From positions 64,001 to 128,000 of the forward strand of contig CAVXLD010000001.1 in NCBI GenBank assembly GCA_963762565.1: 64,000 bases of DNA, given 5' to 3'. Below the pieces are notes generated by a model. The model was given only the letters and a program-made list of their open reading frames with translations. It was not told where the DNA came from and did not search any database. The first letter of the stretch is position 1. Each line of letters starts with the position of its first letter. This DNA comes from an uncultured Verrucomicrobiae bacterium (GTDB lineage: Bacteria; Verrucomicrobiota; Verrucomicrobiia; Chthoniobacterales; JAFAMB01). Shown here piece after piece: positions 1,906 through 59,265 of this stretch. A program made the position numbers and the translations under genes.

Positions 1906-1945
1906 AAGTGAGAGGTGAGAAGTGAGAAGTGAGAGGTAATTGGTA
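1906..1945. repeat. (GTGAGAA/G)n heptamer arm abutting AKR stop codon
   Basis: aaagtgagaggtgagaagtgagaagtgagagg directly after TGA. Confidence 0.8.
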
Positions 1946-1977
1946 AGAGGCGAATAGTTGCGGCTGAAGCTCAAAGC

Positions 1978-2510
1978 TGGTGGGGCGAGGCTCCTGAAAG
2001 ACCCAAAGGCAGCACCAAGGTTTGGATGCGCCGACGCCCCGACGTGACACTAGGCCGGAAATTGCGCCGAGCCGCTGGTCTATAGTGTGGCTAGGCGGTG
2101 AGGCGTGGCACATCATGGGAGACGGCTCGGCAAACTTCCTGGCCTAACATCGCTCCGGACGTCGGATCATCTTATCCCTCCGATTAACGCTGTAAGCCGT
2201 TCGGAGGGTCCGTGGTCAAGACATAGGTAACAAATCATGGTCAAGACATGGATAACAGGTACATACAAAAAATGACTGGGGTGACTCGGAGATCCGCCCA
2301 GCTGGCCGACGGAGGTCAGCTGATAAAAATCGCATGCCGATCGTTCGCGAGAATCGTCGCTTCTGCCCCTCTCACACATTTCACCCTCAAAAAGGACAAC
2401 CAAAGGAACCATACATTTTTTGATTGCCCAAGAATAGGTATATAAAAAGCACATTTTCTCGACAAAGTGTTACCTATGTCTTGACCACGTTCAGGAGCCT
2501 CGCCCCACCA
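1978..2510. repeat. REPIN-like element, family B, carrying an inserted MITE-like segment
   Basis: Outer IR tggtggggcgaggctcctgaa / ttcaggagcctcgccccacca; inner gccgagccg...cggctcggc shared with copies at 50394 and 62282. Confidence 0.8.
2207..2493. mobile_element. Putative MITE (IS481-like ends), no transposase
   Basis: 22-bp perfect IR cgtggtcaagacataggtaaca (2211-2232 / 2468-2489), a second subterminal copy at 2238-2257, GGAG on both flanks as possible target duplication. Confidence 0.6.
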
Positions 2511-2519
2511 AATTTGTTC

Positions 2520-3494
2520 TCAGCTGAATCCAAACAGGCGTTCCGCGTTGCCGTGCGCGATCTTCTCCCTGTCCGACGCGCTGACCGGAAGTTGATCAAG
2601 AAACGCACGCGCTTGCGGCATCGACTGGTAAGGATAATCAGCGGAGAACATAATCCGATCGACTCCCACTTCGAGTAACAGGTTCAGAAAGGTCGCAGTA
2701 AAATTGAAACCGCTGATCGTGTAATGGACGTTTTCCCGAAGGTAAGCGCTGATCGGGCGCTGGAGCTTTGTTAGCGCCATCGCCATTACGTCGAGCCGCG
2801 GCAACATAAAGGGTAACCCCTCTCCCAAATGCCCAATTACAAGTTGCAGCTTCGGATATCGATCGAACACTCCGCCCAGAATGAGGCGAATGACATGCAC
2901 CGCAGTTTCGATGTGCCAGCCCCAGCCTGGACCGGCCAGCATCTCGTTCACTATTGGCGAAAACCCGCTGTACGATGCTTCGATTACAGGCTTTGGCGGT
3001 TGGGTTGGATGAAGATAGATCGGAACGTTCAGCGATTCAGCACGCTCGAGCAGCGGGTAGAAAAACTTATCATCCAAATAGCGGCCCCGATGGTGACCGT
3101 TGATAACGGCGCCTTTGAAGCCGTACCCATTTACCATCCGCTCCAATTCGTCAGCCGCTTTGTCCGGACAGGCGGTTGGCAGCGTGGCGAAGCCCGCGAG
3201 CCGAGAGGGATGTTTCTTAATTGCTGCGGCCAGAAAATCATTGGCATCGAGCGCCACGCTCACGGCATCGGCCTCTTCTAATTGTTCGGTGCCGGGGGAA
3301 GTCAGTGATAACACCTGCACGTTGATACCGGCGCCGTCCATCTCTGCTATTCGATCGTCGCCAACGTCAGTGAGCTGGGCCAGGAGCTTGGCGGCGCGAT
3401 CGCCGAATTGCTGTGCCCGGGCCCTGAGGTCTCGACCCGGGCCCTCCAAGAAAACCGACGTGGCGAAATGTTCTTCCAAGGTGATTCGTCGCAT
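2520..3494 (-). CDS. Amidohydrolase_2 family protein (aromatic acid decarboxylase-like)
   Basis: ITLEEHF, PIYLHP, IGHLGEGLPF, IMFSADYPY motifs. Confidence 0.9.
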   Translation of the reverse strand: MRRITLEEHFATSVFLEGPGRDLRARAQQFGDRAAKLLAQLTDVGDDRIAEMDGAGINVQVLSLTSPGTEQLEEADAVSVALDANDFLAAAIKKHPSRLAGFATLPTACPDKAADELERMVNGYGFKGAVINGHHRGRYLDDKFFYPLLERAESLNVPIYLHPTQPPKPVIEASYSGFSPIVNEMLAGPGWGWHIETAVHVIRLILGGVFDRYPKLQLVIGHLGEGLPFMLPRLDVMAMALTKLQRPISAYLRENVHYTISGFNFTATFLNLLLEVGVDRIMFSADYPYQSMPQARAFLDQLPVSASDREKIAHGNAERLFGFS

Positions 3495-3503
3495 GCTGAA
3501 GTC

Positions 3504-4397
3504 TTACTTCTCGAAATACCGCGGATGGTCAAGATCGGCAATTAACCCGGGCTGCTCTGGCTGCCAGCCTAGGACTTTGCGAGTTCGCTCGCTCGAGCTC
3601 GCAAGGTCCATTGCAGCGAAAAATGCGAACCACCCAAAATGCTTAGCGGCTTCATCGGCATTCAGGCTAACAACCGGCAGGTTGAGACGGCGGCCGATCA
3701 CCTGAGCGATTTCTTTGAAAAGAATCCCCTCTTCGGCAACCCCGTGGTACGGACCATTGACGGCGTTTTGCTCGAGCCCCAGCCGGTAGATACGGGCAGC
3801 GTCGAGGTGATGTACCGCAGGCCATCGGTTGAGTCCTTCGCCTACGTAGGCTGAAACACCCTTCTCACGCGCAAGAGCAATCATGTGGGGAACGAATCCA
3901 TGATCTCCGTCGCCATGCACGGTGGGAGCAAGACGGACAGTCGAAGCACGTACGCCGCGCTCCGCTAGCGAAATAGCCGTCTCCTCAGAGACGCGAGGAA
4001 ACGAGTTCGACCTCGGAACCGGCGCATCTTCCTCGGTCGCGATGCGGCCCTTCGCTAGGAGCGCGAGGCCGGACGATACGAGCAATGGTCGGTCGGAACC
4101 TTCCAGTACGCTACCCAGCGTCTCGATTGCGCGCCGGTCAGCCTCGCAGTTCTTCGCGAATCTCGAAAAATCGTGGTTAAAAGCAGTGTGAATCACGCCA
4201 TCCGAGTTGGCGGCTCCGGTGCGTAAGCTTTTTAAGTCTTCAACATCACCTCGATGCACCTCAGCGCCGGCCGCGGCAAGAGACTTAGCACCCGCATCTG
4301 AGCGCGCGAGGCCGACTACCTGGTGCCCCCCATTTAGCAATTCCTGAACAACAGCAGAACCGACGAACCCTGTAGCCCCAGTAACAAAAACACGCAT
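3504..4397 (-). CDS. NAD-dependent epimerase/dehydratase (atypical SDR)
   Basis: [13 protein letters not shown]ossmann motif, [10 protein letters not shown]. Confidence 0.92.
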
Positions 4398-4552
4398 ACT
4401 CTGATTTCCTTTTCTAGGTTAATGATTACGGAGTCACTATGCCGTCTCCTTGTCCTCCCGTAAATCCACGGAAGTCCAAACTTATTGCCTAATCGTCCAA
4501 GAAGTGCTTTCGTTGTTTCTTAGACTCAGACTCCGGTCCGAGCATAGACTTC

Positions 4553-5452: not shown

Positions 5453-5510
5453 TTCAGATCGAACCCGAAAATCGCAACACGCCGACCCGGTAACCAAAAT
5501 CAAGACGGCT

Positions 5511-6962: not shown

Positions 6963-7161
6963 AGAGGAAGAGGAGTTCAATAAGTCCAAGGAGTACGAGG
7001 AGTATGAGGAGTATGAGGAGTTCAAGGAGACGGCATTCGGACGCTCTGGGGGAAGGACTCGCACCAGGCTGTCATTATGCTTGCAATCCTTGAGCTCCTT
7101 GAGCTCCTTGAACTCCTTAACTCCTTGAACTCCTTGAACTCCTTAGCTCCTTGAACTCCTT
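6963..7161. repeat. Inverted nonamer arms (GGAGTTCAA / CTCCTTGAA-type)
   Basis: gaggagttcaa...ggagtatgaggagttcaaggag ... (ctccttgaa)n variants. Confidence 0.85.
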
Positions 7162-7166
7162 GGACG

Positions 7167-8298: not shown

Positions 8299-8620
8299 GG
8301 TGATTGGTGAATGGTGATTGGTGATTAGTGATTAGTGATTAGTGGCGGCATCAGTAATCAGTAAGCAGTAGATCAGTAATCAGTGAAAGAAAGGGGGCGA
8401 CGCGGGGTTTATCTTTCAGAGAAAAATCGCGGTTCACATCTCCAATCGTTGACAAATCTCGAAACGCGTTGGCAGCGCACGATATCACCAATCACCAATC
8501 ACCAATCACCAATCACCAATCACCAATCACCAATCACCAATCACCAATCACCAATCACCAATCACCAATCACCAATCACCAATCACCAATCACCAATCAC
8601 GAATCACAATCACTCCATCA
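8299..8620. repeat. Inverted heptamer arms (GGTGATT)n ... (AATCACC)n
   Basis: Left arm 8299-8345 abuts the aminotransferase ATG; right arm about 16 near-perfect units at 8484-8620. Confidence 0.95.
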
Positions 8621-11723: not shown

Positions 11724-12313
11724 AGAAAACACCCACGAACCCAGTTCGGCCTTGCAAGCAAGGCGCGCTCCACGGAATCGAAATCTTCAGTCTCGATAGA
11801 GAGGGCCTAATACATCACTTGGCCCCCCTTGCCGAATTGCTGCACGCCTGCGTTCATGATGGCGCCAACGTTGGTTTCATCCTTCCATTCGATCTGGATC
11901 AAGCCCGCACCTTTTGGCTTCAGAAGATCGCGCTCGGGTTGGCTGCAAACACCCGCATTGTACTGGTGGCGAAGCTCGATAACCAAGTGGCAGGTACAGT
12001 CCAGTTAAACCTCGATACGCCACCCAATCAGCCTCACCGGGCGGATGTCTCCAAGCTTTTGGTGCATCCGAGTTATCGAATGCTTGGTGTCGGACGCGCT
12101 CTCATGCAGGAGATCGAATCGTACGGTGCGAATGCCGGACGCCGGCTTCTAACTTTGGATACGGCGACCGACATTGCCGAAACCCTTTATATCTCACTTG
12201 GATATGAACGCGCCGGTCACATTCCCGGTTATGCCCGCGAGCCAGACGAGGATCGGTTCGTTGGTACGACCATCATGTATAAAGTATTGGGAGGTAGGAA
12301 CGGAGCGGAGTGA
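11720..12313 (+). CDS. GNAT acetyltransferase (Ttr-like)
   Basis: ATGA overlap with upstream regulator; GTVQL..DTPPNQPHRADVSKLLVHP, LLTLDT motifs. Confidence 0.88.
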   Translation: MKKTPTNPVRPCKQGALHGIEIFSLDREGLIHHLAPLAELLHACVHDGANVGFILPFDLDQARTFWLQKIALGLAANTRIVLVAKLDNQVAGTVQLNLDTPPNQPHRADVSKLLVHPSYRMLGVGRALMQEIESYGANAGRRLLTLDTATDIAETLYISLGYERAGHIPGYAREPDEDRFVGTTIMYKVLGGRNGAE

Positions 12314-12560
12314 TGGAGTGATGGAGTGATGGAGTGTTGGAGTGTTGGAGTGTTGGAGTGTTGGAGTGTTGGAGTGATGGAGTGATGGAGTGATGGAGTG
12401 TTGGAGTGTTGGAGTGTTGGAGTGTTGGGGCGGCGAAAGTTAGGGAAGCCGGGATCTTGGCCGCTCGTAAGAATTCGTGGTCCTTCGCGTTGACTGATCC
12501 TCCGAATTGTAAGCACCGACAAACCGCTATACTCCATTACTCCATTACTCCATTACTCCG
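12302..12560. repeat. Inverted octamer arms (GGAGTG(A/T)T)n ... (TACTCCAT)n
   Basis: About 15 units at 12302-12427 including the GNAT stop codon; reverse arm 12529-12560. Confidence 0.92.
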
Positions 12561-14470: not shown

Positions 14471-14660
14471 AGGCGTTTGGCGTTTGGCGTTTGGCGTTTG
14501 GCGTTTGGCGTTTGGCGTGTGGCGTTTGGCGTGTGGCGTGTGGCGTGTGGGTGTGGCGTGTGGCGTGTGGCGTGTGGCGTGTGGCGTGTGGCTGTGGCTG
14601 TGGCGTGTGGCGTGTGGTGTGGCGTGTGGCGTGTGGCGTGTGGCGTGTGGGCGTGTGGGC
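14471..14660. repeat. (GGCGTTT)n grading into (GGCGTGT)n heptamer array
   Basis: About 27 units directly downstream of pdxY stop. Confidence 0.95.
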
Positions 14661-14993: not shown

Positions 14994-15881
14994 ATGTCTG
15001 AGCAATTGAAGCGTTCCATTGTTATCACCGGCACTTCGTCCGGCATCGGCTACGCTGTGGCCAAAGTGCTGGCAGAACGCGGTTTTCAAGTGTTCGGTAG
15101 CGTTCGATCAGAGACAGACGCTAATCGTACGAGCCAGGAGCTTGGCCCCAATTTTTGCCCGTTGATCTTCGACGTAACGGACCAGCAAGCTGTCCGCAGA
15201 GCATCCGATTTGGTTTCCGAAAAAATCGGCCAGAATCACTTATACGCGTTGATTAATAATGCCGGGATCGAAATGGCCGGTCCGCTGGCTTATCTCCCTT
15301 TGGAAGGGTTTCGGCTCCAACTCGAAGTCAATCTGATCGGGGTGCTTTCTGTTACTCAAGCATTCTTACCATTGTTAGGCACTGAGCCCGGTCGGCTCGG
15401 ACGTCCGGGCCGGATCATCAACATCAGTTCGATGATGGGTCGCCTGGCCGTTCCCTTTATTGGCGCCTATTGTGCATCGAAATTCGGGCTCGAAGGTCTC
15501 TCAGATAGTCTTCGCCGCGAAATGAGGTTGTTTGGTATCGACGTCATTGTGGTCGAACCGGGAGCCGTGATAACGCCGATTTGGGATAAAGCTGAGGGGA
15601 AACTTTTGCATGACTATCCCAATACACCCTACCAGGATTCGCTCACAAAGTTTGTGGAGACTGCGATGAAATCTGGGGCTGAAGGCTTTCCACCGAGTAA
15701 AGTGGCTCAATTGATCGCCCGCATTTTATCGACCAAAAAACCAAAGGCTCGCTACACGCTGATACCCAAACACTTCGTTGAATTTACCATCCCACGCCTT
15801 TTACCGACGCGGACGCTTGATTATCTCATGGGCAAGTATCTTGGTATCGGCGCCGTCAGGGAGACGATACGTGAGAAGTGA
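14994..15881 (+). CDS. SDR family oxidoreductase
   Basis: VITGTSSGIG, LINNAG, YCASK (YxxxK), VVEPG. Confidence 0.93.
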   Translation: MSEQLKRSIVITGTSSGIGYAVAKVLAERGFQVFGSVRSETDANRTSQELGPNFCPLIFDVTDQQAVRRASDLVSEKIGQNHLYALINNAGIEMAGPLAYLPLEGFRLQLEVNLIGVLSVTQAFLPLLGTEPGRLGRPGRIINISSMMGRLAVPFIGAYCASKFGLEGLSDSLRREMRLFGIDVIVVEPGAVITPIWDKAEGKLLHDYPNTPYQDSLTKFVETAMKSGAEGFPPSKVAQLIARILSTKKPKARYTLIPKHFVEFTIPRLLPTRTLDYLMGKYLGIGAVRETIREK

Positions 15882-16052
15882 GAGGTGATTGGTGAGAAGT
15901 GATTGGTGGCCTACCCAATTGCGCAGTCGCCATCCAAGCGCTGGGATGGCGACTGCGCGCTGGACGTTTTCTATCGGGCCACATCGGACAGCACCGCTAC
16001 CGAGGGTGCGCCCAGACTCCCACTTCTCACTTCTCACTTCTCACTTCTCACT
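15872..16052. repeat. Inverted heptamer arms (GTGAGAA)n ... (CACTTCT)n
   Basis: Left arm contains the SDR stop codon; right arm 16021-16052. Confidence 0.88.
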
Positions 16053-16994: not shown

Positions 16995-17007
16995 GACGAG
17001 GTTCTCC

Positions 17008-17170
17008 GTTGGCGGTTGGCGGTTTGCGCTTGTTCAGCGGTAAAGATTCGCGATGGACCGTGGAGCGGATGGGACTTATGGGACAAATGGGACTTATGAG
17101 ACGATCTTTTTCGCAAGTGGATGATACGATTGCGAAAGCGCGAACTGCTAACGGCTAACTGCTAACTCCT
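17008..17170. repeat. Inverted heptamer arms (GCGGTT-type) enclosing an (ATGGGACNN) nonamer tract
   Basis: gttggcggttggcggtttgcg ... atgggacttatgggacaaatgggacttatg ... aactgctaacggctaactgctaac. Confidence 0.75.
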
Positions 17171-17935: not shown

Positions 17936-18146
17936 GTGGAGCGCTGCCTCGCTTGCGAGGCCGTGGTGAACAGTGAAGAACAGGGTGATAGGTGAAAAGT
18001 GAAAGGAATGCTACCAGCCAGCAGACAAATTCGGCGCTGTTGCCCTAAAAATCATTGACGCTAATGATTCCTCGTTAGGCCCACGATTTCACCTTTCACC
18101 TTTCACCCTGATCACCAACGGCCTCGCAAGCGAGGCAGCGCTCCAC
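17936..18146. repeat. REP doublet, family E, enclosing (GGTGAAA)/(TTTCACC) heptamer arms
   Basis: 29-bp perfect IR gtggagcgctgcctcgcttgcgaggccgt (GTGG foot plus hairpin). Confidence 0.85.
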
Positions 18147-18188
18147 TCTGTACTCCTTTTCTCATTTGCGGTAAATTTCCCCAAGTTT

Positions 18189-18713: not shown

Positions 18714-18862
18714 GTTGCGTTCGCAGTTCGCAGTTCGCGGTTAACGGTTCGCGCCGGGAGTGGAACGGATAGGATCCGCCTCCGCAAAGCCTACGGCGCG
18801 ACTGGCTCTATGGGACCAATGGGACCTATAGGACCCAACTGGTAACTGCTAACCGCTAACCA
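18714..18862. repeat. Inverted heptamer arms with nonamer tract and ~30-bp hairpin insert
   Basis: gttcgcagttcgcagttcgcgg ... tccgcctccgcaaagcctacggcgcgactgg ... atgggaccaatgggacc ... aactgctaaccgctaacc. Confidence 0.72.
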
Positions 18863-20298: not shown

Positions 20299-20340
20299 TT
20301 TGGTATGAAACTGATGAACCGTAGGCGAGTTCCCAGCAAT

Positions 20341-20545
20341 GGCAAGGCGAGACGAGAGGCGAAACGGCGAAACGGCGTATGGGCGAAACGGCGTATGGCG
20401 TACCGGCTGTGGGCGCTTGGAGGCGCATAGCGCTGAAGTGAATTTAGCTTAGAGGCTAAATTCTTCGCGGCCCGAAGGCTTTCGGGGCCAGGGGTTCGCG
20501 CTGTCGATCGCCGTTTCGCCCAATCGCCCATTCGCCGTTTCGTTC
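20341..20545. repeat. Inverted octamer arms (GGCGAAAC/GGCGTATG) ... (CGCCGTTT/CGCCCATT)
   Basis: Left arm 20345-20400, right arm 20509-20541. Confidence 0.8.
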
Positions 20546-20581
20546 CGCGTGGCGCGATTATGGCTATTATTGCCGGATCGT

Positions 20582-20914: not shown

Positions 20915-21015
20915 AGTAAGCAGTAAGCAGTAAGCAGTAAGCGGTAAGCAGTACGGAGGTGTTCCGACGCGTTCTGGACTGATTACTGACACACTGCTAC
21001 TCCTTACTGCTTACT
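20915..21015. repeat. Inverted heptamer arms (CAGTAAG)n ... (TTACTG-type)
   Basis: agtaagcagtaagcagtaag... / ttactgac...ttactgcttact. Confidence 0.8.
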
Positions 21016-22965: not shown

Positions 22966-23225
22966 GGCGTTTGGCGTTTGGCGTTTGGCGTTTGGCGTTC
23001 GGCGTATCGGCGTGCCGGCGATGGGGAGGGATCGCGTCCTCGCGATCCGTTGTGACCGGAACACGCTTGCCGAACCCAAGGTTAGCTAGGTCCTGGGCTT
23101 TGACCTCGCCTTTAAAGCGCGCGGGGACGCGCGCCCTCCCCGAAAACCGACCTTTCGCCGTTTCGCCGGGCTTCGCGCCGGTTTCGCCGGTGCGCCGTTT
23201 CGCCCCCTCGCCGACACGCCCCATC
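22966..23225. repeat. Composite: (GGCGTTT)n and octamer arms enclosing REP family D
   Basis: ggagggatcgcgtcctcgcgatccg hairpin at 23025, closing gcggggacgcgcgccctccc, then cgccgttt-type arm. Confidence 0.78.
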
Positions 23226-23284
23226 GCCAACAAACCACACCCAAAACGCTGATCGGGGTTGCGCTGTCGTTTGGCTGCGCAACA

Positions 23285-24051: not shown

Positions 24052-24320
24052 GGCGTGTCGGCGAAACGGCGAATGGGCGAATGCGAATGGGCGAATGGGT
24101 ATCGGCGACGGGAGGGATCGCGTCCTCGCGATCCGTTGTGACCGGAGGAATGCGCTTGACGGTCCAAGGGCGATGCGATGCGCACGCATAGCTCAAATCC
24201 GGCCCGGTTGAGCTAGCGAAGTCGTTGCCGTAGGGCGCGCCGAGATTTTCGCCCCAACAGGCGCTTCGCCCACTCGCCCATTCGCCCATTCGCCGTTTCG
24301 CCCTTTCGCCCACTCGCCTC
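24052..24320. repeat. Composite: octamer arms enclosing REP family D left arm and family A right arm
   Basis: gggagggatcgcgtcctcgcgatccgttgtgaccgga (24110-24146) identical to 23024-23060; gggcgcgccgagattttcgccc at about 24233. Confidence 0.78.
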
Positions 24321-32100: not shown

Positions 32101-32346
32101 GGAATTTCACCACAGAGGCACAGAGAACACAAAGAACAGATAATAAAATCCGCAGATTACGCAGATTACACAGATTTCGTTTTGAGCTTCGGATAGCGGC
32201 CAAGTACTCAACGAAACGGCAGCATACCTGGACGACTTTTTTCCCTGCGGCTGGATTCAATCTTTAACGTAATCTGCGTAATCTGTGAAATCTGCGGATC
32301 CTAATGTCTGTCTCTGTGTCCTCTGTGTCTCTGTGGTGAAATTTCC
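32101..32346. repeat. Gene-less GxxExxY-type element with a nested CGCAGATT-type element
   Basis: Right arm ctctgtgtcctctgtgtctctgtggtgaaattt differs by 1 nt from 53274-53306; inner IR 32148-32176 / 32271-32299. Confidence 0.88.
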
Positions 32347-37363: not shown

Positions 37364-37369
37364 ACAGGT

Positions 37370-37520
37370 AGAGTTAGGAGGTAGAATCTAGGAGCTAGTG
37401 CGTCGCCGCGACTTCTAAATTCTTACTGTTGCTCTGTCGTTTATTCGTTTAAATTTAAGGGCATCTATTAGTCAGGTATTTTTCCTTCTAGATCCTAGAT
37501 TCTGGCTCCTAGCTCCTACT
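37370..37520. repeat. (GGAGCTA)-arm palindromic element between permeases
   Basis: gagttaggaggtagaatctaggagctag ... ctagatcctagattctggctcctagctccta. Confidence 0.85.
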
Positions 37521-39933: not shown

Positions 39934-39939
39934 AAGGGA

Positions 39940-40102
39940 GGAGTTAGGAGCTAGAATCTAGGAGCTAGGAGGGAGACTCTTTTTCTGATTCGTGCGTTGC
40001 TCCAACGACTGGTTTTGTCAGCTGACTTATGCAGATTCGATTCAGTTTTGTTCGCGATATCGTCATCTCTTCTAGATCCTAGATTCTAGCTCCTCGCTCC
40101 TA
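39940..40102. repeat. (GGAGCTA)-arm palindromic element between permeases
   Basis: gagttaggagctagaatctaggagctagg ... tctagatcctagattctagctcctcgctccta. Confidence 0.87.
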
Positions 40103-42544
40103 GTCTCGTAGCGCCGTGATGGGATCGATGCGCGTCGCTCGGAATGCGGGTAGCAGACAGGCGAGGAGCGCAGCCGTGGAGAGTACCAGGGCACTGGTCA
40201 ACACCGCCGCAGGATCACTCGCCGATACGCCATAAAGGACGCTTCCGATGATTTGTCCCAGTACGATCCCCGCGCCTATGCCGACAATGAGTCCCACGCA
40301 AATAATGCGCAGTCCCTGATAAGTAACCAATTTAATGATATTCGTTGCTTCGGCCCCTAAAGCCATTCTAACGCCGATCTCCCGGACCCGCATGCTTACC
40401 GAGTAGGAAAGAACTGCGTATAACCCAATTGCAGCCAACAAGAGCGCGACACAGGAGAACAACCCCACTACGACCAATGAGAGGCGCCTAGTTGTGAAAC
40501 TTTTAGCAATCAGATTGTCGTAGGCGCTGACGTTGGCCAGGGGAAGATCGGGATCAAGCGTGCCGATCGTGTTTCGCAAAGCCGGAATCACCGACTGAGG
40601 GTCAACGGTTGTATGCAGAACCAGTGTTTCGAACTTCGTGAATTCGCCGAAGCCTCCTGCCGTCTGCGAGTACGAGAAATAGGATTGAAACGGCGTTTGG
40701 CCGTGCCCGGGGTCGTTGTGTTGTACGTCAGCCACAACCCCAATGATCGTAGTAATATGGCGCGGCCGATTGAATAAATGTCCGACGTCGTCAAGCTGTT
40801 TCCCGATGGGATCTTCACCGTGGAAAAAGCGTTGGGCAATGCTCTGGTTGATAATAACGACATTTTCGGAGTTGGGTTGATCTCGATCGTCAAAGAAACG
40901 CCCTCTTAGCAATGGAATACCAAGCGCGCGAAAATAACCGGGCGAGACGATCTGGTGAATCATCCATGGCAGGCGGCTGACGTCCGTTACCGGTTGGCCC
41001 GCTATGATCAGAGTTTCATGATCGTTATTGTCACCAAAAGGAACGCAATCGTTCAGCCCAAGATCGGTCACACCTGGTATTTGACGAGCCTTATCTAGCA
41101 ATGAATCGAAGAACGCCTTCCGCTTTTCGCCGTCAGCGTACTTCGTACTCGCCAGATAAACGTCCGCCACCAGAACCTGATGACTTTTGAATCCCAATGG
41201 AACACCTTGGACAGCCAAAAAGCTTCGTAAAAGCAATCCTGCTCCGATCAAAAGCACTGAGGCCAGGGCGACCTGCCCGATTACCAGAATGCTTTGGCTG
41301 CGTTGGCGTTCTCGCCCGACCGTACCAGTCCGTCCTCCTTCATCGCGAAGTGCGGAAGCTAAATTTGCCCTCGACAGAACGAGGGCAGGAAAAAGTCCAA
41401 AAAGCAGGGCGGTTAGCAAGGTCAGACCGAAAACAAATAACAGGGCCGTACCATCAATCGCGATGTTCTGCAGGCGACTGATGTCGCCCGGATCGAGCAT
41501 TTTGATTAAGGAGACGCCCCAACAAGCCGTTAACAATCCAATTCCACCACCCATCAGCGCAAGTACTAGGCTCTCGCTTAGCAGCTGTACCAATAAGCGT
41601 TCCCGGCTCGCTCCGAGCGCAGCCCGGACCGTTATCTCTTTGCTTCGTTCACGTGCCCTTGCCAGCAGTAGGTTCGCGGTGTTAGCACAGGTAATTAGTA
41701 GCAAACAAATTACCGCCCCACCGAGCAGCCAGAGCGTGGTCGCATAGTCACTCACGACGCTGGCGAGGAAGGGCTCGATCCTGACTCCAAACGGGGCGCT
41801 CGTGTCCGGATATTGAGTGATCAGATTTCGATTGAGGACTTCAAAGTCGGCTTGCGTCTGCGCAATTGTGACCGCGTCCTTCAATCGGCCAACACAGAGA
41901 AACATGTGGCCGCTACGGCGAGAGCTAACGTCTTGGTAGCGAGGATCAAGAGTAAACGGTATGTACAGGTCGATTCTTGCGATTTCATTGGCCTGCGCCG
42001 GCGTAACCCCGATGATCTCGAAATTGCGTCCGTTCAAAGTGATGTTTTTGCCGATCACCTTCGGGTCCGCGTGAAACCGTTTTCGCCAGAGCACATCGGT
42101 AATCACAACGACGCTGGCCGCGATTTTGTCTTCCTTTTCTCCGAACGGCCGGCCCAGCAGTAGCGGTCTGCCCATAAGGGCAAAGAAATTGCCGGTCACA
42201 TAGGCGCCATCTATACGCTCGGGTTCAGTATCCCCGGTGACCTGGAAATCGTCCGGCTGGATCAGCGCCAAATCCTGGAGCGTATGTTGGCCAGACTTGA
42301 AATCGACGTAGTCACTGTAGGCCATGTCCATTCGCGGAACGTCTTGTGTTGGCTGAAAAATTCTGACCAACCTGTCCCCTTGCGGATATGGAAGCGGCTT
42401 GAGCAGAACGCCATTGATAAGGCTGAAGATGGCAGTGTTGGCGCCAATGCCCAAGCCCAGGATCACGATCGCGGTAATGGTAAATCCAGGTGATTTCAGC
42501 AAGAGCCGAACGGTGAGGCGGAGATGGGAAATTAGGCTGCGCAT
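40100..42544 (-). CDS. ADOP permease copy 2
   Basis: MRSLISHLRLTVRLLLKSPGF...IDPITALRD. Confidence 0.93.
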   Translation of the reverse strand: MRSLISHLRLTVRLLLKSPGFTITAIVILGLGIGANTAIFSLINGVLLKPLPYPQGDRLVRIFQPTQDVPRMDMAYSDYVDFKSGQHTLQDLALIQPDDFQVTGDTEPERIDGAYVTGNFFALMGRPLLLGRPFGEKEDKIAASVVVITDVLWRKRFHADPKVIGKNITLNGRNFEIIGVTPAQANEIARIDLYIPFTLDPRYQDVSSRRSGHMFLCVGRLKDAVTIAQTQADFEVLNRNLITQYPDTSAPFGVRIEPFLASVVSDYATTLWLLGGAVICLLLITCANTANLLLARARERSKEITVRAALGASRERLLVQLLSESLVLALMGGGIGLLTACWGVSLIKMLDPGDISRLQNIAIDGTALLFVFGLTLLTALLFGLFPALVLSRANLASALRDEGGRTGTVGRERQRSQSILVIGQVALASVLLIGAGLLLRSFLAVQGVPLGFKSHQVLVADVYLASTKYADGEKRKAFFDSLLDKARQIPGVTDLGLNDCVPFGDNNDHETLIIAGQPVTDVSRLPWMIHQIVSPGYFRALGIPLLRGRFFDDRDQPNSENVVIINQSIAQRFFHGEDPIGKQLDDVGHLFNRPRHITTIIGVVADVQHNDPGHGQTPFQSYFSYSQTAGGFGEFTKFETLVLHTTVDPQSVIPALRNTIGTLDPDLPLANVSAYDNLIAKSFTTRRLSLVVVGLFSCVALLLAAIGLYAVLSYSVSMRVREIGVRMALGAEATNIIKLVTYQGLRIICVGLIVGIGAGIVLGQIIGSVLYGVSASDPAAVLTSALVLSTAALLACLLPAFRATRIDPITALRD

Positions 42545-42551: not shown

Positions 42552-42748
42552 AGGAGCTAGGAGCTAGAATCTAGGAGCTAGAAGTTCGCTTCGGGGTTTT
42601 TGGATAGTGCAATCGAGGGACAGATTTCGTGCCGTCATTTAACATTCGTTGTGTAAGATTCGCGCTCATTTTGATGTCTCCTAGATCCTAGATTCTAGCT
42701 TCTAGCTTCTAGCTCTCTAGCTCCTAGCTCCTAGCTTCTAGCTCCTAC
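42552..42748. repeat. (GGAGCTA)-arm palindromic element
   Basis: aggagctaggagctagaatctaggagctag ... ctagatcctagattctagcttctagct...(ctcctag)n. Confidence 0.88.
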
Positions 42749-43263: not shown

Positions 43264-44013
43264 TCATCCACCCACAACCCGAGGGGTAGGTTCTCCTTCG
43301 TTTTCGTTGTTCTCGGCCACGATCTGACCGTCGAAGAGATGCACGGTTCGGTCCGCATAACCGGCAAATCGTGGATCATGGGTTACCATACAAATGGTAG
43401 CGCCGCCCTGATGCAATTCGGATAGCAAATCCATTACGGCGTCACCGTTTTTGCTATCCAAGTTACCCGTTGGCTCGTCGGCCAGCAGGATCGATGGTGA
43501 ACCAACCAACGCTCGGGCTACCGCCACGCGCTGTTGTTGTCCACCACTCAGCTGATTCGGATAGTGCCGTTGCCGATGGCTCATCCCGACTCGATCCAAG
43601 GATTGCAGAACCCGCTGTTTACGTTCGCTCCTGGGCATCTCGCCGCGATAGGTCAATGGTAGTTCGACGTTCTCGTATACCGTCAAGTCACCGATCAGGT
43701 TGAAACTCTGAAAAATGAATCCGATTTCCCGGTTACGGATCCTGGCTCTCTCGGACAGCTTCAGTTGTTCAACTTGCCGCCCATTCAGCCGGTAGGCCCC
43801 TTCCGAAGGCGAGTCTAGCAGACCTAGAATCGATAGGAGCGTCGATTTGCCGCAACCGCTCTGGCCGGCGATCGCCACATATTCGCCCTTCAAAATCTCG
43901 AGATAGATACCGGCTAACGCATGGGTTTCAATCTCGTCAGTAAGAAAGACTTTCTTTATCGCGTCTAGGTGGATGAGGGGTTCTGGGTTCACGTTTGGCA
44001 GTTCGCTGTTCAC
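43264..44013 (-). CDS. ABC transporter ATP-binding protein (MacB/LolD-type)
   Basis: [33 protein letters not shown]; start codon uncertain. Confidence 0.95.
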   Translation of the reverse strand: MNSELPNVNPEPLIHLDAIKKVFLTDEIETHALAGIYLEILKGEYVAIAGQSGCGKSTLLSILGLLDSPSEGAYRLNGRQVEQLKLSERARIRNREIGFIFQSFNLIGDLTVYENVELPLTYRGEMPRSERKQRVLQSLDRVGMSHRQRHYPNQLSGGQQQRVAVARALVGSPSILLADEPTGNLDSKNGDAVMDLLSELHQGGATICMVTHDPRFAGYADRTVHLFDGQIVAENNENEGEPTPRVVGG

Positions 44014-44320
44014 GGTTGAGGTTGGCGGTTAGCGGTTTGCAGTTGTCGGTTAGCGGTTTCAATCGTTCTCGTCCTCGCTCTCGTAATCGTCCTCGTCCTC
44101 GATTCGCTTTGGTTTCTGTTCACGGTGGGCGTTTTAGCGTGGTAGGCACGAAATAGTAATCGGTGCTCGTGTTTCGCGCTGGGTAGCCGGTTAGCGACCG
44201 TTGAACCACTTTCACTACACATGCGTGGTAACCAAAGTTTCGGATTCATTTGAAATTTTTTCGGAGTTTTATTTTTCCGTACCAATCACCAATCACTTCT
44301 CACCTCTCACGTTCCCTCAC
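44014..44320. repeat. Mixed heptamer/hexamer repeat arms
   Basis: ggttagc-type left arm, ctcgtc hexamer tract 44068-44103, accaatc/cttctca right arm. Confidence 0.75.
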
Positions 44321-46751: not shown

Positions 46752-47043
46752 AAGTGATTAGTGATTAGTGATTGGTGGTGCTGCGCTCACGCCGATCGGC
46801 CGTTTTTTGCGTTCTCACGAAAAAAGCAACCTCACAGACCGGCAGCGAATACACTGGAAAGGGCGAATCGATTAGTCCTCTGGAGTCGTGGCGTTTCCAA
46901 AAGCTCTCACGATGCGCGATTTGTTTATTGAAAATTTTCATTTTGTTAGCTCCATCACGCTCACCAATCACCAATCACCAATCACCAATCACCAATCACC
47001 AATCACCAATCACCAATCACCAATCACCAATCACCAATCACCT
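46752..47043. repeat. Inverted heptamer arms (GTGATTA/G) ... (AATCACC)n
   Basis: Right arm about 11 units; includes the adaptor gene stop codon. Confidence 0.92.
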
Positions 47044-48769: not shown

Positions 48770-48930
48770 GGGTGAGGGCAAAAGGGCGAAGGGGCGAGGT
48801 TTAAGTGGACTCAGTGGACGGAGTGCACGAAGTGTGCCGCGCCAAACGCCAAACGCCAAACGCCAAACGCCAAACGCCAAACGCCAAACGCCAAACGCCA
48901 AACGCCTTTCACCTTTCACTCTTCACCTTG
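48770..48930. repeat. (CGCCAAA)n array with GGTGAAA-type arms
   Basis: About 9 cgccaaa units at 48840-48906; tttcacctttcactcttcacc overlaps the kinase 3' end. Confidence 0.9.
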
Positions 48931-50312: not shown

Positions 50313-50651
50313 ATTTCACGCCAAGACGCAAAGACGCAAAGGTGATTCGTGATTCGTGATTAGTGATTAGTGATTGGTGATTGGTGGAGGCACTTGGTGG
50401 GGCGAGGCTCCCGAAAGAGTAAGAAGTTCTATCAGAGCTCCCGATGTTTCGCCGCTAAAGAGTTTGTTAGGCCTATTGACGCGCCGAGCCGGGGCCCAGC
50501 GATAGACCACGGCTCGGCGCCCTTAACGGCCTAGCATCGCGGGTCGGCGGGGTTAACCGCAAGGGCTTCGCTATCGCGATGGACCTTTCGGGAGCCTCGC
50601 CCCACCAATCACTTCTCACCAATCACCGATCACGTCTCGCCCTACCAATCA
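50313..50651. repeat. Nested composite: nonamer arm, GTGATT heptamer arms and family B REPIN
   Basis: 24-bp perfect IR ttggtggggcgaggctcccgaaag (50394-50417 / 50585-50608) inside heptamer arms. Confidence 0.85.
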
Positions 50652-52064
50652 CAGCCCATATTGCTGCAACCGCCGGTAAAATGTGCTACGACTCAAACCG
50701 AGAGCTTCCGCAGCGCGTCGAGCATTACCACCGTACCGATTAAGCGCTTTCTTGATTAACAACTTCTCGATGTCCTCCAAGGTCATTTCATCGAGGCGCG
50801 ATGAATCAGACGGAGTTTGTCCTCCGATATCGGCCAAGCCGAGATCCGGAGGCCGGATCTGAGCACTGTCTGTCATCAGAACGGCGCGTTCTATGGTGTG
50901 ATCGAGTTCCCGCACGTTCCCCGGCCACCGATGATAGGTGAGAGCCTTCTCGGCAGCAGGGTCAATCCCGGTAATCCGCTTAGCGTACCGGCTAGCATGA
51001 CGGTCCAAGAAGTGTTGGGCCAACGGAACGATGTCTTCCGGCCGGTCGCGCAAAGGCGGAATCTGAATCTCGACTGTTCGCAGTCGGAAATAGAGGTCTC
51101 GCCTGAACCGGCCCGATTCAACCTCAGCCGGTAAATCGGAATTCGTCGCCGACAAAAGCCTGACACTCGCGCGCCGAGTTTTGGAAGAACCGAGCCGCTC
51201 AAACTCGCCGGTCTCAACCGTGCGCAAAAGTTTGGCCTGTTGCGAGAGTGGAATATTCCCGATCTCATCCAGAAATAAGGTCCCTCCGTCGGCGATCTCG
51301 AAACGTCCGGCCCGCTCACTCTTGGCGTCCGTAAAGGCTCCTTTCATGTGGCCGAACAGTTCGCTTTCAAACAGGTTCTCGTTCAGGCCTCCCATGTTGA
51401 CTGTCACAAAGGCCTTTTCAGCTCGCTGACTGGCGACATGAATCGCTCGCGCCACCACGCCCTTTCCCGTCCCGTTTTCGCCGGTGACCAAGACATTCGC
51501 ATCAGAAGGCGCAATTCGTTGGATCGTCTCGACGACGGCGCGCATTCCCGATGATTGGGCGATTAGTCCAGTGGTCGCTAACGCCGTTTTCCGACTGGGC
51601 ATCAGGCCGGCATCTCCGCGAAGGACCTGATTTTCCGACTCCAATCGCTCGCCGCGCAGCTCGGCAGCCGAAAAATCAAGCTGCGTGCGCACAATGGCCG
51701 AGACGCGCGAATTTTCCCAGGGCTTTTCAAAGAAGTCCCGAGCGCCGGTTCGCATGGCAGCAACCGCCAGATCGACCGTCGCCCACGCCGTCATGACTAC
51801 AATTGGTGGAGCGCCCTCGATTTTTTTGATCTGGGCGATAAGCTCGAGACCTTCCTGGCCGCCCGTCGTATCACGAGCGTAATTGAGGTCCAACAATATC
51901 AGCGAGACCTCGCTATTTTCGAGAGTCTCCATCACCTCTTTAGGAGAAGTCGCCAACGCAGTCTCGTACCCTTCCTTCGCGAGAAGTATTCGGAGCGCCT
52001 CCCGGACAGCGGCTTGGTCATCGGCGATCAGGATGCGGGGTTTTTTTGCGGGTTCTCGGTTCAC
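50649..52064 (-). CDS. Sigma-54-dependent response regulator (NtrC/AtoC family)
   Basis: RILIADD receiver, GENGTGK, ESELFGH..GAFTDA, FLDEIG, WPGNVREL, Fis HTH; GTG at 52064 preferred because upstream is repeat-derived. Confidence 0.93.
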   Translation of the reverse strand: MNREPAKKPRILIADDQAAVREALRILLAKEGYETALATSPKEVMETLENSEVSLILLDLNYARDTTGGQEGLELIAQIKKIEGAPPIVVMTAWATVDLAVAAMRTGARDFFEKPWENSRVSAIVRTQLDFSAAELRGERLESENQVLRGDAGLMPSRKTALATTGLIAQSSGMRAVVETIQRIAPSDANVLVTGENGTGKGVVARAIHVASQRAEKAFVTVNMGGLNENLFESELFGHMKGAFTDAKSERAGRFEIADGGTLFLDEIGNIPLSQQAKLLRTVETGEFERLGSSKTRRASVRLLSATNSDLPAEVESGRFRRDLYFRLRTVEIQIPPLRDRPEDIVPLAQHFLDRHASRYAKRITGIDPAAEKALTYHRWPGNVRELDHTIERAVLMTDSAQIRPPDLGLADIGGQTPSDSSRLDEMTLEDIEKLLIKKALNRYGGNARRAAEALGLSRSTFYRRLQQYGL

Positions 52065-52360
52065 GGTTCGCAGTTCACGGTTGGCGGTTGCGGTTGGAGT
52101 TGTTCCTCGTCCTCGTTCACGTCGTCGTCCTCGTCCTCGAAAGGTTTGCACCGGGACCCAGCGGCAACATCCGCTCTATGTTGATACAGGAAATAACAAT
52201 CATCGAAAAAGCCTTACAAGATACGCGTGACCAGTAGAAAGGCCCATTCGCGAAGAATTAGCAACAACTTCTCATTGGTTGCGTGAGGATAACCGAGGGG
52301 ACAACCGCAAACTGCAAGCCGCTAACCTTGACACCCTCGAGGACGAGGACGAGAACGATT
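52050..52360. repeat. GGTT-type heptamer arms and CTCGTC/GAGGAC hexamer arms
   Basis: ggttcacggttcgcagttcacggttggcgg; ctcgtcctcg...; aaccgcaaactgc; tcgaggacgaggacgag. Confidence 0.78.
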
Positions 52361-54672: not shown

Positions 54673-54881
54673 GAGAAACGGGGAGCAGATTTTATCCCAA
54701 ACTGTTTAAGCAATCGGTGAGTTATTAGAAAAGGATAAAAAAGAACGAACGCAGCAAATGATGGGCAACTGTGCATTATTCTAAGCGAGGCGCTCCGGAA
54801 ACTGGGTAACAAAGCCGCCTAGAAACGGTCTGGCTTAAGCAGAAAGCGATTTTCCCCTCGTCGTGCGCGCACCCCGGTTTT

Positions 54882-55560
54882 TACCCCAAAGGGGTAATAG
54901 GACTCAGCCTGGGGTTTTAACCCCAGGAATGCGCCAAAAAAAAGACCCCCGCCCTGAAAGGGCGGCAGATTTTTGGAATGACAAATACATCAATATATTA
55001 TGTAATAGATACAATGTCTTAATCACTGGCACGCATCTTGATTCACCTTGTCTTTTCGACCAAGAACCGGGTCGCGTTCTTGCAATCTCAACAGCTCCGA
55101 TCTGAAGTTCACGCGTATCTTACTGCGACTTTACGCGCCCTGGATTGCGAACCCGTTCAGGTCGGCGGAGTCAGCGATCACGTACATCTACTCTTTGGTC
55201 TTTCCCGAACCGTCTCGCTGGTAGATGTAGTTAAACAGCTTAAAACCAGCTCCACGAAGACGATTCGAGAGAAAGGTCATCACGCTTTCAGTTGGCAAAC
55301 CGGCTACGGCGCCTTCTCAGTCAGCGAATCGAATAAAAGCGCAGTCATCGACTACATCATCAATCAAGAAATCCACCATCGTAAGATGACATTCCAAGAA
55401 GAAATCAGGGTGCTTCTAACCAAGCACAGTATGCGTTTCGATGAGCGATACGTCTGGGATTGAGACACTCTCAATCTGCCGCCCTTTCAGGGCGGGGCAT
55501 TTTTGGGGCGCATTCCTGGGGTTAAAACCCCAGGCTGAGTCCTATTACCCCTTCGGGGTA
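54882..55560. mobile_element. IS200/RAYT-like element with ~90-bp multi-hairpin inverted arms
   Basis: Arms 54882-54971 and 55473-55560, each with taccccNNNggggta, cctgggg-N6-ccccagg and cgccct-N4-agggcg-type hairpins. Confidence 0.85.
55014..55463 (+). pseudogene. tnpA: HUH Y1 transposase (IS200/IS605 TnpA, RAYT-like) with TAA at codon 3
   Basis: MS*SLARILIHLVFSTKNR, DHVHLL (HUH), FSWQTGYGAFSVS, YIINQEIHH; in-frame TTG at 55038 could restart. Confidence 0.8.
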
Positions 55561-55632
55561 CAACCCCAACGTCCGAAAGATCGGCGCTTCGTTAGAACCT
55601 GACGTTCTTTCGGGAGGCGCACCCTAGCAACG

Positions 55633-57639: not shown

Positions 57640-57704
57640 GCTGGCAATGTATTCCGGGGGCCGGGGAGCACAAGAGCGTGGCACGCGGTAAGGGGTGGCA
57701 GCAC

Positions 57705-57935
57705 AAGTAAGCAGTAAGCAGTTTAGGAGCTAGAATCTAGGAGCAAGGAGGGCGGGGGCTTGGCAGCCGACGGTGCGGGTGGCATGCGAGTAATCAGTGA
57801 TCGGTAAGTCAGTAGTCAGTGCTGAAGGCGGATCGATCACTGCTTACTGCTTACTTTGAGACTCCTGGCTATCTTTCGTCCAACGTCCGCCAGACCCCCG
57901 ACCCGTTAGCTCCTAGATTCTAGCTCCTAGCTCCT
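57705..57935. repeat. Composite CAGTAAG and GGAGCTA arms
   Basis: agtaagcagtaagcag, aggagctagaatctaggagc ... ctgcttactgcttact, tagctcctagattctagctcctagctcct. Confidence 0.85.
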
Positions 57936-57978
57936 CTTTTTTCGAGCTTTCTGAACGATTCCGGCTATAAACCCTGGC

Positions 57979-58392
57979 GTGAACCTTTGGCAAAAATTGA
58001 GCTTATTGGCTGTGGTCGCCTTGCTCTTACCCTTCGTCGCTTCAGCTCAAGAGCAGGCAAGTAAGTATCATTACGACGGGATCTACAAAGGGACGGTCCT
58101 GATCGACCTTTTGGTGAACGGAAATGACAAGCAACGGGCTAAGGCCCAGGCCGTTTTTTATCCGGACGGGCGCCTGCTCGTGTTGACGGTCGAATCGCCG
58201 CAAGTTCGCAACCCGATGAATATCAAAGGCGTGCTCCGAAAAAACGTCTTTACCGGAAACTGGAAGAAAGGGCTCTTCGGGACTGATCTTTCTGTCGAAG
58301 CCACCTTCCACAGTGGCTCCGCTGTACTCATCGTTACCGAGAAAAACAAGAAACCTGAGAAATGGTTCTTTACGAAGGTAAGCGGAGCGTGA
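57979..58392 (+). CDS. Hypothetical secreted protein
   Basis: Signal peptide ending ASA-QE; beta-rich mature part. Confidence 0.75.
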   Translation: MNLWQKLSLLAVVALLLPFVASAQEQASKYHYDGIYKGTVLIDLLVNGNDKQRAKAQAVFYPDGRLLVLTVESPQVRNPMNIKGVLRKNVFTGNWKKGLFGTDLSVEATFHSGSAVLIVTEKNKKPEKWFFTKVSGA

Positions 58393-58451
58393 CTTCGTTG
58401 TGAGAAGTGATGGTGAGGCGAGGCGGCCTCCTGGCTCCTAGATTCTAGCTT

Positions 58452-59093
58452 CTAGCTTCTAGCTCCTTTTTTGGATCGCTTCGGCGCTGTTTCTTGGGCC
58501 TGGTGCAAGCGCGCGAGCATCATCTCGATAGCTGTGTCCAGACAATGTTGCGCGGAGTATAACGTTAGGGCCCCATGGCTTCGCCGGAGAGAATCTATGA
58601 AGATGACTCCTTCCAGCATATCGATGAGCATCTCAACGTCCGCGCCGCGCCGCGGTTTTTTTTGCTGCGAGGTCAACAGCGTGTTCATCGCCGAACGCAT
58701 CGGCCTGAAAACGTCGTGCAAGACGTCGCGATGATCTTTGCTGAAATGATGCAACTCACCGAGCAGTACCCGGATGATAGGCAGACTCTCATCCATTAGC
58801 CGGTGTTGAAGCTTGGCGTAATGTAATAAAGCGGCGCGCAGGTCGCCGGGTGGCTCGTGCACAACAGGCGGCTCAATCCGCCGCGCAAAAAAACGTTCTA
58901 CTACGGCGCGCAAAAGCTTTTCCTTCGTGCCAAAGCGGCGAAAGAGCGTCATTTCGCTGAGGCCGGCTTCGATGGCGATTTCCCGGGTGGTAGCGCCTTT
59001 TAGGCCTTTACGCGCAAATACCCGGGCGGCAGCATCAAGAAGTCTTTCTGCAGCGTTGCTTCTTTGGGGGGTCTGACTCTGGGGTCGACGCAC
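58452..59093 (-). CDS. TetR/AcrR family regulator
   Basis: RLLDAAARVFARKGLKGATTREIAIEAGLSEMTLFRRFGTKEKL. Confidence 0.93.
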   Translation of the reverse strand: MRRPQSQTPQRSNAAERLLDAAARVFARKGLKGATTREIAIEAGLSEMTLFRRFGTKEKLLRAVVERFFARRIEPPVVHEPPGDLRAALLHYAKLQHRLMDESLPIIRVLLGELHHFSKDHRDVLHDVFRPMRSAMNTLLTSQQKKPRRGADVEMLIDMLEGVIFIDSLRRSHGALTLYSAQHCLDTAIEMMLARLHQAQETAPKRSKKGARS

Positions 59094-59183
59094 TGATTAC
59101 CGCAAGCAAAGTCGCAAATGCTAGGCGCAAGTCAACTTTTAATCATACTTAACCTCTTACATCGGTTGATATTACGTTGAGGG

Positions 59184-59265
59184 GTTTGCAGTTTGCGGTT
59201 GACGGTTGGGGGTGGCGGCTTCGGCCGTCAATGAACCGCTAACGGCAAACCGCCAACCGCCCAAC
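59184..59265. repeat. Inverted GCGGTT-type heptamer arms
   Basis: gtttgcagtttgcggttgacggttgg / aaccgctaacggcaaaccgccaaccg. Confidence 0.72.

Follow-up and report, generated by a model that had tools for sequence, protein, structure and literature searches.

The gaps between genes in an uncultured soil bacterium of the Verrucomicrobiota contain a large number of short tandem repeat arrays, which are commonly arranged as inverted pairs of predictable strand polarity. These arrays were studied in a 64,000-nucleotide stretch, hereafter the window (G000:C1:64001-128000), and in the entire assembly to which it belongs (G000; 6.12 Mb, 54% G+C, 15 contigs). The paired arrangement of the arrays is real and far above chance. 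With moderate confidence, we interpret the paired arrays as lineage-specific repeats of the foldback/REPIN kind, non-coding and able to form hairpins, which would be amplified or homogenised in trans and would drift by slippage.

The closest public records are metagenome-assembled genomes (MAGs) of Verrucomicrobiota/Chthoniobacterales, with 97% and 96% amino-acid identity, which identifies the host as a Chthoniobacterales-type bacterium. Chthoniobacter flavus shares 69% amino-acid identity with it. The genes of the window include a sigma-54 activator and MacB-type permeases.

Abundance, pairing and strand polarity of the arrays

Arrays were called with Tandem Repeats Finder (TRF), redundancy was removed, and the main analyses were limited to periods of 6-10 nt. 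The 94 TRF rows of the window were reduced to 70 non-redundant arrays of period 6-10, and all ten repeat units named in the initial annotation were present in the TRF output. Genome-wide, 4547 non-redundant arrays cover 2.3% of G000, and 3749 of them are of period 6-10. Heptamers are the commonest (1562 arrays), followed by periods 9 (823), 8 (648), 10 (382), and 6 (334). On contig C1, TRF rows of period 6-10 numbered 936, whereas a local shuffle yielded 133; the corresponding numbers for period 7 were 374 and 20. The arrays represent 1071 distinct canonical units and at least 12 word superfamilies. The main units (GGTGATT, GGAGCTA, AAATGAC, etc.) carry GG or a lone G and do not contain quadruplex-type tracts of three or more G; GGG was found only in the GGGCGAAA type.

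The 3749 arrays of period 6-10 are distributed among intergenic gaps (2452), edges of open reading frames (ORFs; 528), and ORF interiors (769). As a genome-wide statement, the description of the gaps as filled by arrays was exaggerated: 1551 of 3930 gaps contain at least one array, and arrays make up about 5-8% of gap bases. Strict inverted pairs are present in just 371 of the 3930 gaps, namely in 8.8% of tandem, 12.2% of convergent, and 8.3% of divergent ones.

An inverted same-unit pair was defined as two adjacent arrays at most 400 bp apart, with one mismatch tolerated, and the expectation was obtained by shuffling partners. As many as 435 of the 1438 adjacent array pairs are inverted copies of one unit, compared to 35 on average and 49 at most after shuffling, which confirms that inverted pairing is in excess. 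Direct same-unit pairs numbered 14 (17 expected). The excess of inverted pairs is confined to short range (28 versus 5.6 expected at 400-800 bp) and pairing across genes is near chance (14 versus 9.5, 15 versus 9.1, and 6 versus 5.9), so that the gap, and not the gene, appears as the unit. Arm lengths within a pair vary independently, with a correlation of 0.19; the ratio of the longer to the shorter arm has a 90th percentile of 1.7. The very unequal arms initially noticed at 8299-8613 and 12307-12559 were recovered, and so was the mixed-family gap, located at 43995-44296 (Table 1). Where pairs combine, seven cases are nested, none crossing, and five side by side, all of these numbers being small.

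The order of arms is strongly biased. Across the genome, a G-rich array is followed by a C-rich one in 298 cases, and the opposite order occurs in 55. Of the 435 inverted pairs, 371 have a purine-rich left arm; G exceeds C in the left arm of 242 pairs and falls short of it in 56. In families represented by at least five pairs, 335 of 338 pairs conform to a fixed order. When word families separated by a single mutation are linked, polarity agrees on 24 edges versus 2, and about 12 superfamilies result. The purine-first pairs include 255 of 7-mers, 56 of 8-mers, 49 of 9-mers, and 11 of 10-mers. Among the 28 exceptions in this period range, 17 are G-rich GGCGTTT-type units. All 31 hexamer pairs of G000 are pyrimidine-first; the exception made in the initial annotation for CTCGTC hexamers was therefore right and turns out to be general. 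The 9-mers do not follow the hexamer polarity.

The purine/G strand runs away from the nearest gene in 1008 cases versus 371. This is true in all four flank-orientation classes, in agreement with the earlier claim of a polarity independent of gene orientation. Isolated arrays show the same preference at both 3' ends (149 versus 71) and 5' ends (108 versus 52) of genes. No bias was detected with regard to the replication strand, the G-rich strand being leading and lagging in 25 cases each (arrays of at least eight units). In 20 of 30 pairs with an arm-length ratio of at least 1.8, the arm replicated first, as judged by local GC skew, exceeded the other in length, a weak trend that is not significant.

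Two simple causes of the polarity were considered and rejected. Stop codons favour the observed arm order in 219 pairs and the opposite order in 48, with 168 ties. The polarity is, however, equally strong at 5' and 3' gene ends, so that explanations based on stop or start codons fail. Shine-Dalgarno sequences were rejected as the cause of the hexamer reversal, since divergent gaps are not enriched in hexamer pairs (4 of 22); the share in convergent gaps (9 of 22) is only suggestive. A literature search, whose coverage excluded most subscription journals, revealed no account of a multi-family, period-dependent polarity rule.

Arms, cores and turnover among relatives

The outer edge of an arm lies close to the neighbouring gene: the median distance is 13 nt to a stop codon (409 gene 3' ends, 69% within 30 nt) and 52 nt to a maximal ORF start (345 ends). 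The length of the core between the arms is bimodal, with ranges of 20-50 nt and 80-300 nt. In the compact class, arms are stereotyped strings of about four words, with a variant word at a set position that is mirrored on the opposite side. Hexamer-like words often occupy the outside of heptamer words in an arm. Arms are approximately 90% similar to the family consensus, and their complementarity to the own partner equals that to partners in other elements (0.87-0.94, 10 families). There is, therefore, no covariation that would preserve pairing.

The closer adherence of an arm to its family consensus than to its own partner would be expected if arms were arrays of binding sites for proteins or RNAs (nucleoid, regulatory, or secondary transposase sites), with selection acting on the word sequence and not on pairing. 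Conservation of words between congeners despite the divergence of neutral sites, reported below, points in the same direction. Tandem subterminal repeats of foldback-like elements are proposed to be secondary transposase-binding sites (PMC3573991), and protein binding is proposed by MacGregor for TAACTGA repeats (PMC4679880). The number of superfamilies and units would, however, demand many binders, and no candidate binder was identified. Nor is the occupancy of orthologous gaps conserved, and the pairs are not associated with a gap class. We regard an origin of the arms as binding sites as unlikely.

The initial annotation had suggested telomerase-like addition of repeats. In such a process, templated reiterative synthesis would extend both 3' ends of a break, which would then be sealed around captured DNA. 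Two G-rich 3' ends facing each other are the geometry that this process would leave, and it could account for conserved arms around unrelated cores and for a 142-bp block, one arm plus core, that is present or absent between strains. It predicts few unit types, in contrast to the 1071 units and at least 12 superfamilies observed, and further a dedicated reverse transcriptase as well as arms whose units are degenerate on the gene side and clean where growth occurs. No gradient of unit quality was seen from the proximal to the distal end of arms (identity 0.877 for outer and 0.819 for inner units in 71 arms of at least six units). The reversed order of all hexamer pairs does not agree with it either, and arms are fixed strings with a set order of variants; one pair can also combine arms with different variants. 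Of four RVT_1 matches detected in G000, just one is intact, and it represents a group II intron maturase (382 bits, TIGR04416), template RNAs not having been searched for. Templated addition is thus very unlikely.

Cores are hardly distinguished by structure. Their folding is no stronger than that of array-free gaps (median z -0.32 versus -0.87; 22% versus 23% below -2). The possibility that cores arose by nested insertion into hairpin tips was rejected, as they are no more structured than array-free gaps. A weak common central palindrome was recognised in AAATAGC cores, and about a third of cores (130 of 382) hold other dispersed repeats. Whole gaps are able to fold strongly, as at 15871..16052 and 42552..42747 (Table 1). 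Between positions 7000 and 25000 of the window, sigma-70-type promoter-like sites numbered 1 versus 9.9 expected from shuffles, and terminator-like sites 16 versus 20.4; canonical signals seem to be rare in these gaps.

Congeners share 75-87% nucleotide identity in genes with G000 and have kept the gene order. About four of nine orthologous gaps compared by eye retain arms of the same family with differing copy numbers. The gap at 12.3 kb, for example, has 15 units in G000 and about two in congeners, and outer arms are kept at 15.9 and 20.3 kb. The remaining gaps are occupied by another family or by a REP-like element or are empty, and cores are mostly not alignable. Arms are thus preserved in part of the orthologous gaps, and occupancy turns over in the others. 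In a crude automatic comparison of 81 gaps syntenic between G000 and the congener G002, arrays were detected in neither genome in 37 gaps, only in G000 in 29, only in G002 in 5, and in both in 10. No family common to both genomes was found in these 81 gaps, the 10 doubly occupied ones differing, by a detector that misses short arms. The rate of turnover is accordingly uncertain: no gap was shared by the automatic comparison and about four of nine by eye.

The same organisation was observed in an arbitrary 313-kb sample of G002, which contains 576 arrays per Mb. Inverted pairs account for 27 of its 59 adjacent pairs, compared to 2.8 expected, and 26 of these 27 are purine-first; the sole exception belongs to the same hexamer family as in G000. 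The units of 121 of the 181 G002 arrays form a family in G000, at a third-codon identity of 0.65 in one conserved gene. The ranking of families by abundance differs between the two genomes. A trimer of the commonest heptamer was present in 5 of 121 genomes of the order, with 116, 26, 12, 2, and 1 matches. In a related genus (G012, 400 kb), arrays number about 200 per Mb, and the three pairs present are too few for replication. Around one orthologous gene in 80 Chthoniobacterales records, arrays were located in 61; the nine inverted pairs near this gene include six purine-first and three pyrimidine-first ones, two of the latter three being hexamers of other sequence. Chthoniobacter flavus carries a hexamer pair next to this gene. 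Two hexamer pairs of unrelated sequence in Chthoniobacter records (L088, 68-143; L095, 2932-3008) are pyrimidine-first.

Support beyond this assembly came from soil metagenomes. Three short-arm gaps (16994-17170, 18713-18856, and 20298-20549) are bridged by contigs from four soil runs of three studies, in which 0-8 differences were counted. One run has a single extra 7-nt unit at 18843. Contigs from two soil runs of other studies lack 142 bp at 17010-17151 (left arm, core, and 9-mer array), while the right arm is present in them together with the genes on either side. At arrays, contigs built from short reads are interrupted and apparent depth rises 10- to 400-fold, and the copy numbers of the longest arrays are known from the assembly alone, all of which might be taken to indicate an assembly artefact. 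Given the bridging contigs and the presence of the same architecture in separately assembled congeners and at 61 of 80 related loci, the probability of this explanation is negligible.

Some of the above features would suit an origin of the elements in place, that is, local inverted repeats that were lengthened by slippage and kept for a host function (3' protection, termination, or insulation), with nothing mobile involved. These are the short distance between arms and stop codons, the strong folding of the two whole gaps, the slight excess in convergent gaps (12.2% versus 8-9%), the retention of arms at some orthologous gaps while cores diverge, and the single-unit differences between strains. 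Terminator-like sites are not enriched between 7 and 25 kb, so another 3' structure could serve. Hundreds of loci, however, carry identical word strings, including the position of the variant unit, which excludes independent local origin as their source. The lack of pairing-preserving covariation and the frequent replacement or absence of the family at orthologous gaps also weigh against an origin in place, and arms neither favour 3' over 5' gene ends nor avoid divergent gaps. Such an origin appears rather unlikely.

Elements of the window and neighbouring genes

The elements recognised in the window are listed in Table 1. Window positions 25071-46743 encode seven MacB_PCD+FtsX permease ORFs in a row on the minus strand, six of them of about 790-815 aa; one is apparently split into the overlapping ORFs 34917-36110 and 36068-37363. 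Three gaps between these ORFs hold GGAGCTA-family arms. The dispersed repeat of about 290 bp at 14660-14950 has at least eight more copies in G000 at approximately 80% identity as well as copies in congeners, and by eye this repeat type occupies other orthologous gaps in relatives.

Table 1. Repeat elements of the window (positions within the window; x, number of units).
Position	Strand	Arrays	Remarks
6989..7162	.	9-mer arrays AGGAGTACG x4.6, then TCCTTGAAC x8.7	purine-rich arm first
8299..8613	.	GGTGATT x6.6, core, ATCACCA x18.7	very unequal inverted pair; left arm adjoins start of gene 7167-8297 (-); contains unpaired ATCAGTA array at 8350-8384
12307..12559	.	GGAGTGWT x15.2, 101-bp core, TACTCCAT x3.8	left arm contains stop codon of ORF 11639-12313; congeners have ~2 units or another element
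14472..14658	+	GGCGTTT/GGCGTGT x27	long single array, begins 5 nt past stop codon; followed by ~290-bp dispersed repeat; other families at orthologous gap of congeners
15871..16052	.	GTGAGAA/GGTGATT words, core with own hairpin, CACTTCT x4.6	arms kept in two congeners, cores not; DNA fold -59.8 kcal/mol, z -10.2
17008..17167	.	GTTGGCG x3.6, ATGGGACTT x3.8, AACTGCT x3.6	
17984..18107	.	GGTGAAA x3.3, core, TTTCACC x3.0	nested in REPIN-like family copy with ~40-nt ends at about 17940-17983 and 18108-18150
18719..18860	.	GTTCGCA x3.4, ATGGGACCA x2.9, AACTGCT x3.4	GGTTCTA-type arms in congeners
20358..20536	.	GGCGAAAC x4.5, core, TTCGCCCA x2.8	outer arms common to two congeners, inner layers differ there
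20915..20953	+	AGTAAGC x5.6	degenerate mirrored partner before gene 21021-22811 (-)
22966..23228	.	GGCGTTT x5.7, then TTTCGCCG / TCGCCCCC arrays	
24060..24318	.	GGCGAATG x5.2, 165-bp core, TTCGCCCA x6.8	
32119..32335	.	CACAAAGAA, CGCAGATTA; CGTAATCTG, TGTCTCTG	two concentric layers
37366..37518	.	GGAGCTA-family words	separating tandem MacB-type permease paralogues; one of three gaps of this type
39939..40103	.	AGGAGCT x4.7, core, CTAGATC x4.6	
42552..42747	.	AGGAGCT x4.3, core, CTCCTAG x9.9	minus-strand RNA fold -74.7 kcal/mol, z -4.3
43995..44296	.	left, GGTTNNN heptads and TCGTCC hexamers; right, CCAATCAC/TTCTCAC words	mixed gap
46753..47042	.	AGTGATT x3.6, 183-bp core, TCACCAA x11.7	adjacent TCACCAA copies match 100%
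48775..48929	.	AGGGCGAA, AAGTGGACG; CGCCAAA x9.6, CCTTTCA	
50318..50633	.	ACGCAAAG, GTGATTA x6.4, core, CACCAAT x4.4	
52051..52358	.	GGTTCAC-type heptads, then TCCTCG x6 / CGAGGA x3.5	hexamer pair of reversed polarity
54876..55566	+	no word arrays	context: IS200/RAYT-like Y1 transposase gene 55038-55463 with REP-like inverted repeats of 73-95 nt on either side
57706..57935	.	AGTAAGC, core, ACTGCTT, then TAGCTCC x4.1	

The only match in the window at the Rfam gathering score is an Acido-Lenti-1 RNA (RF01687, 38.3 bits) at 55515-55560. This match is contained in the right one of the REP-like inverted repeats beside the transposase gene 55038-55463. In G000, the Acido-Lenti-1 motif may therefore represent a repeat associated with the transposase and not a free-standing small RNA. 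Also, the genome contains a REPIN-like family whose inverted ends measure about 40 nt and whose spacer, some 110 bp long, is semi-conserved at its centre; copies of this family include 17940-18150 of the window, G000 C1:987540-987710, and dozens more. The end motif of this family occurs as a 43-bp tandem array some 700 bp from a 352-aa ORF with a Y1 domain (locus L022).

Origin of the elements and known repeat systems

According to our interpretation of the arrays as foldback/REPIN-kind elements, an element would consist of two inverted arms around ordinary unrelated DNA, each arm comprising some 3-6 related words of 6-10 nt. Families would be amplified or kept homogeneous in trans, via a mobilising activity or conversion among copies, and the elements would persist in dispensable DNA between gene ends and regulatory cores. 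Replication slippage would occasionally produce long and unequal arrays. Fixed polarity would be inherited within families, while the bias across families, with the purine/G-rich arm transcribed first from either side, might reflect a common constraint. Our favoured guess for this constraint is avoidance of Rho loading: a pyrimidine/C-rich untranslated arm would load Rho if it emerged first and would be masked by pairing if it emerged second. Rho is encoded in G000.

The initial annotation had also offered non-autonomous elements with expandable ends. This proposal fits the structure of the families, the turnover of occupancy, and the independent arm lengths, but a partner, a target duplication, and conserved internal sequence were not found. 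A further expectation, that arm families enclose genes, was not borne out. Same-family arms 400-4000 bp apart are purine-first in 126 cases versus pyrimidine-first in 111, near chance, and no autonomous copy or genes enclosed by arms were found among them.

This absence is one of several observations that weigh against an origin by amplification in trans. Simple copy-and-paste predicts related cores, and the cores are unrelated; within AAATGAC, the best local score between cores was 19 versus 18 for shuffled sequences. Compensatory arm changes, which occur in REPINs, were not found in the 10 families. Although G000 has 12 Pfam Y1_Tnp matches, word arms (6-10-nt arrays of a main family) were absent beside the transposase gene at the 8 loci examined, which have REP-like inverted repeats of their own instead. 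No target-site duplication or conserved non-repeat terminus was seen with a crude flank consensus, in which repeat phases are mixed and short duplications could be missed; this consensus contained only degenerate units. Among syntenic G002/G000 gaps and paralogous sites, no clean pair of filled and empty sites with exact element boundaries was recovered, and the paralogous search mostly returned copies of one REPIN-like family. The Rho idea leaves unexplained the hexamers, which are the third most abundant family and have the opposite order, as well as the pyrimidine-rich reading of arrays in 5' leaders. Finally, the gene models are crude ORF calls of our own.

Among known systems, the closest parallels are the heptamer repeats of Xanthomonas. 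The Xanthomonas unit GGGAATC forms tandem heptamer arrays, about 90% of which are intergenic, with 70-75 convergent plus/minus pairs per genome (Rehm et al., 2015; PMC4692102). These repeats are nearer to the 5' neighbouring ORF in any orientation, and their length differs between species while the single or paired type is kept (PMC4692102). Among the GGGGA(C/T)T arrays of Nostoc, few inverted pairs are reported (Rehm et al., 2015; PMC4692102). Tandem units approximately 7 nt long, a mostly intergenic location, convergent inverted pairs, and a G-rich strand that lies nearer to and runs away from the ORF are common to Xanthomonas and the bacterium studied here. Unlike the single Xanthomonas family with G3-4 tracts that form quadruplexes, the arrays of G000 comprise many superfamilies of mostly GG-containing units. 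They also differ in their period range of 6-10, reversed hexamers, stereotyped multi-word arms, and verrucomicrobial host. Overall, the elements resemble the Xanthomonas repeat type more than a telomerase-like repair scar.

REPINs are inverted REP doublets with conserved ends and a less conserved spacer (Bertels and Rainey, 2011; PMC3116915). The elements described here are likewise inverted, extragenic, hairpin-capable doublets with conserved ends and a looser spacer, present as families of many copies, and RAYT/IS200-like genes are encoded in G000 as in REP-RAYT systems. In contrast to REPINs, their ends are tandem words and not self-palindromic REPs, compensatory changes are lacking, and spacers are unrelated and variable in length. 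A cognate RAYT gene flanked by the same repeat, as known from REP-RAYT systems, was not encountered at the eight Y1 loci.

Foldback elements, such as Drosophila Foldback, are eukaryotic, have ends of hundreds of bp, and possess a known transposase. The arms in G000 are 20-130 bp long, and neither a transposase partner nor a target duplication was found. The terminal inverted repeats of the foldback-like element Galileo contain internal tandem repeats, which change independently in the two ends (PMC3573991). Inverted ends made of tandem sub-repeats, their independent expansion and contraction, and many copies consisting of two ends and a spacer are common to these elements and those of G000.

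The comparison with the short tandemly repeated repetitive (STRR) heptamers of cyanobacteria, made in the initial annotation, holds with regard to resemblance but not to the host, which is not a cyanobacterium. Both STRR and TAACTGA repeats are, like the arrays in G000, short tandem heptamers, mostly intergenic, and restricted to certain lineages. TAACTGA repeats are direct, with one indirect set among 169 direct ones (PMC4679880).

The conservation of arms around unrelated cores, the reversed hexamers, and the words common to different species leave room for a process that writes arms. In this model, which we consider quite improbable, arms would be laid or re-laid around pre-existing intergenic DNA by a polarity-aware process and would not be inherited together with the cores. 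Candidates for such a process would be directed conversion or the reiterative copying, primed by hairpins or breaks, of family-specific master copies. If true, the model would explain arms conserved at about 90% around unrelated cores, the validity of a single strand rule in 11 or more unrelated word families, its reversal in every hexamer family, seen also in two other Chthoniobacterales lineages, and the conservation of words between species with diverged neutral sites.

Arrays of this kind break short-read assemblies and inflate apparent depth, and thereby bias MAGs from soil. Intergenic heptamers of bacteria, such as STRRs and the Xanthomonas repeats, have been without a mechanism for decades. 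The genus studied here is an extreme natural data set, with about 600 arrays per Mb and dozens of word families. It displays one strand rule, a clean period-dependent exception to this rule, and fast turnover between congeners and strains, which makes the question of their mechanism testable.

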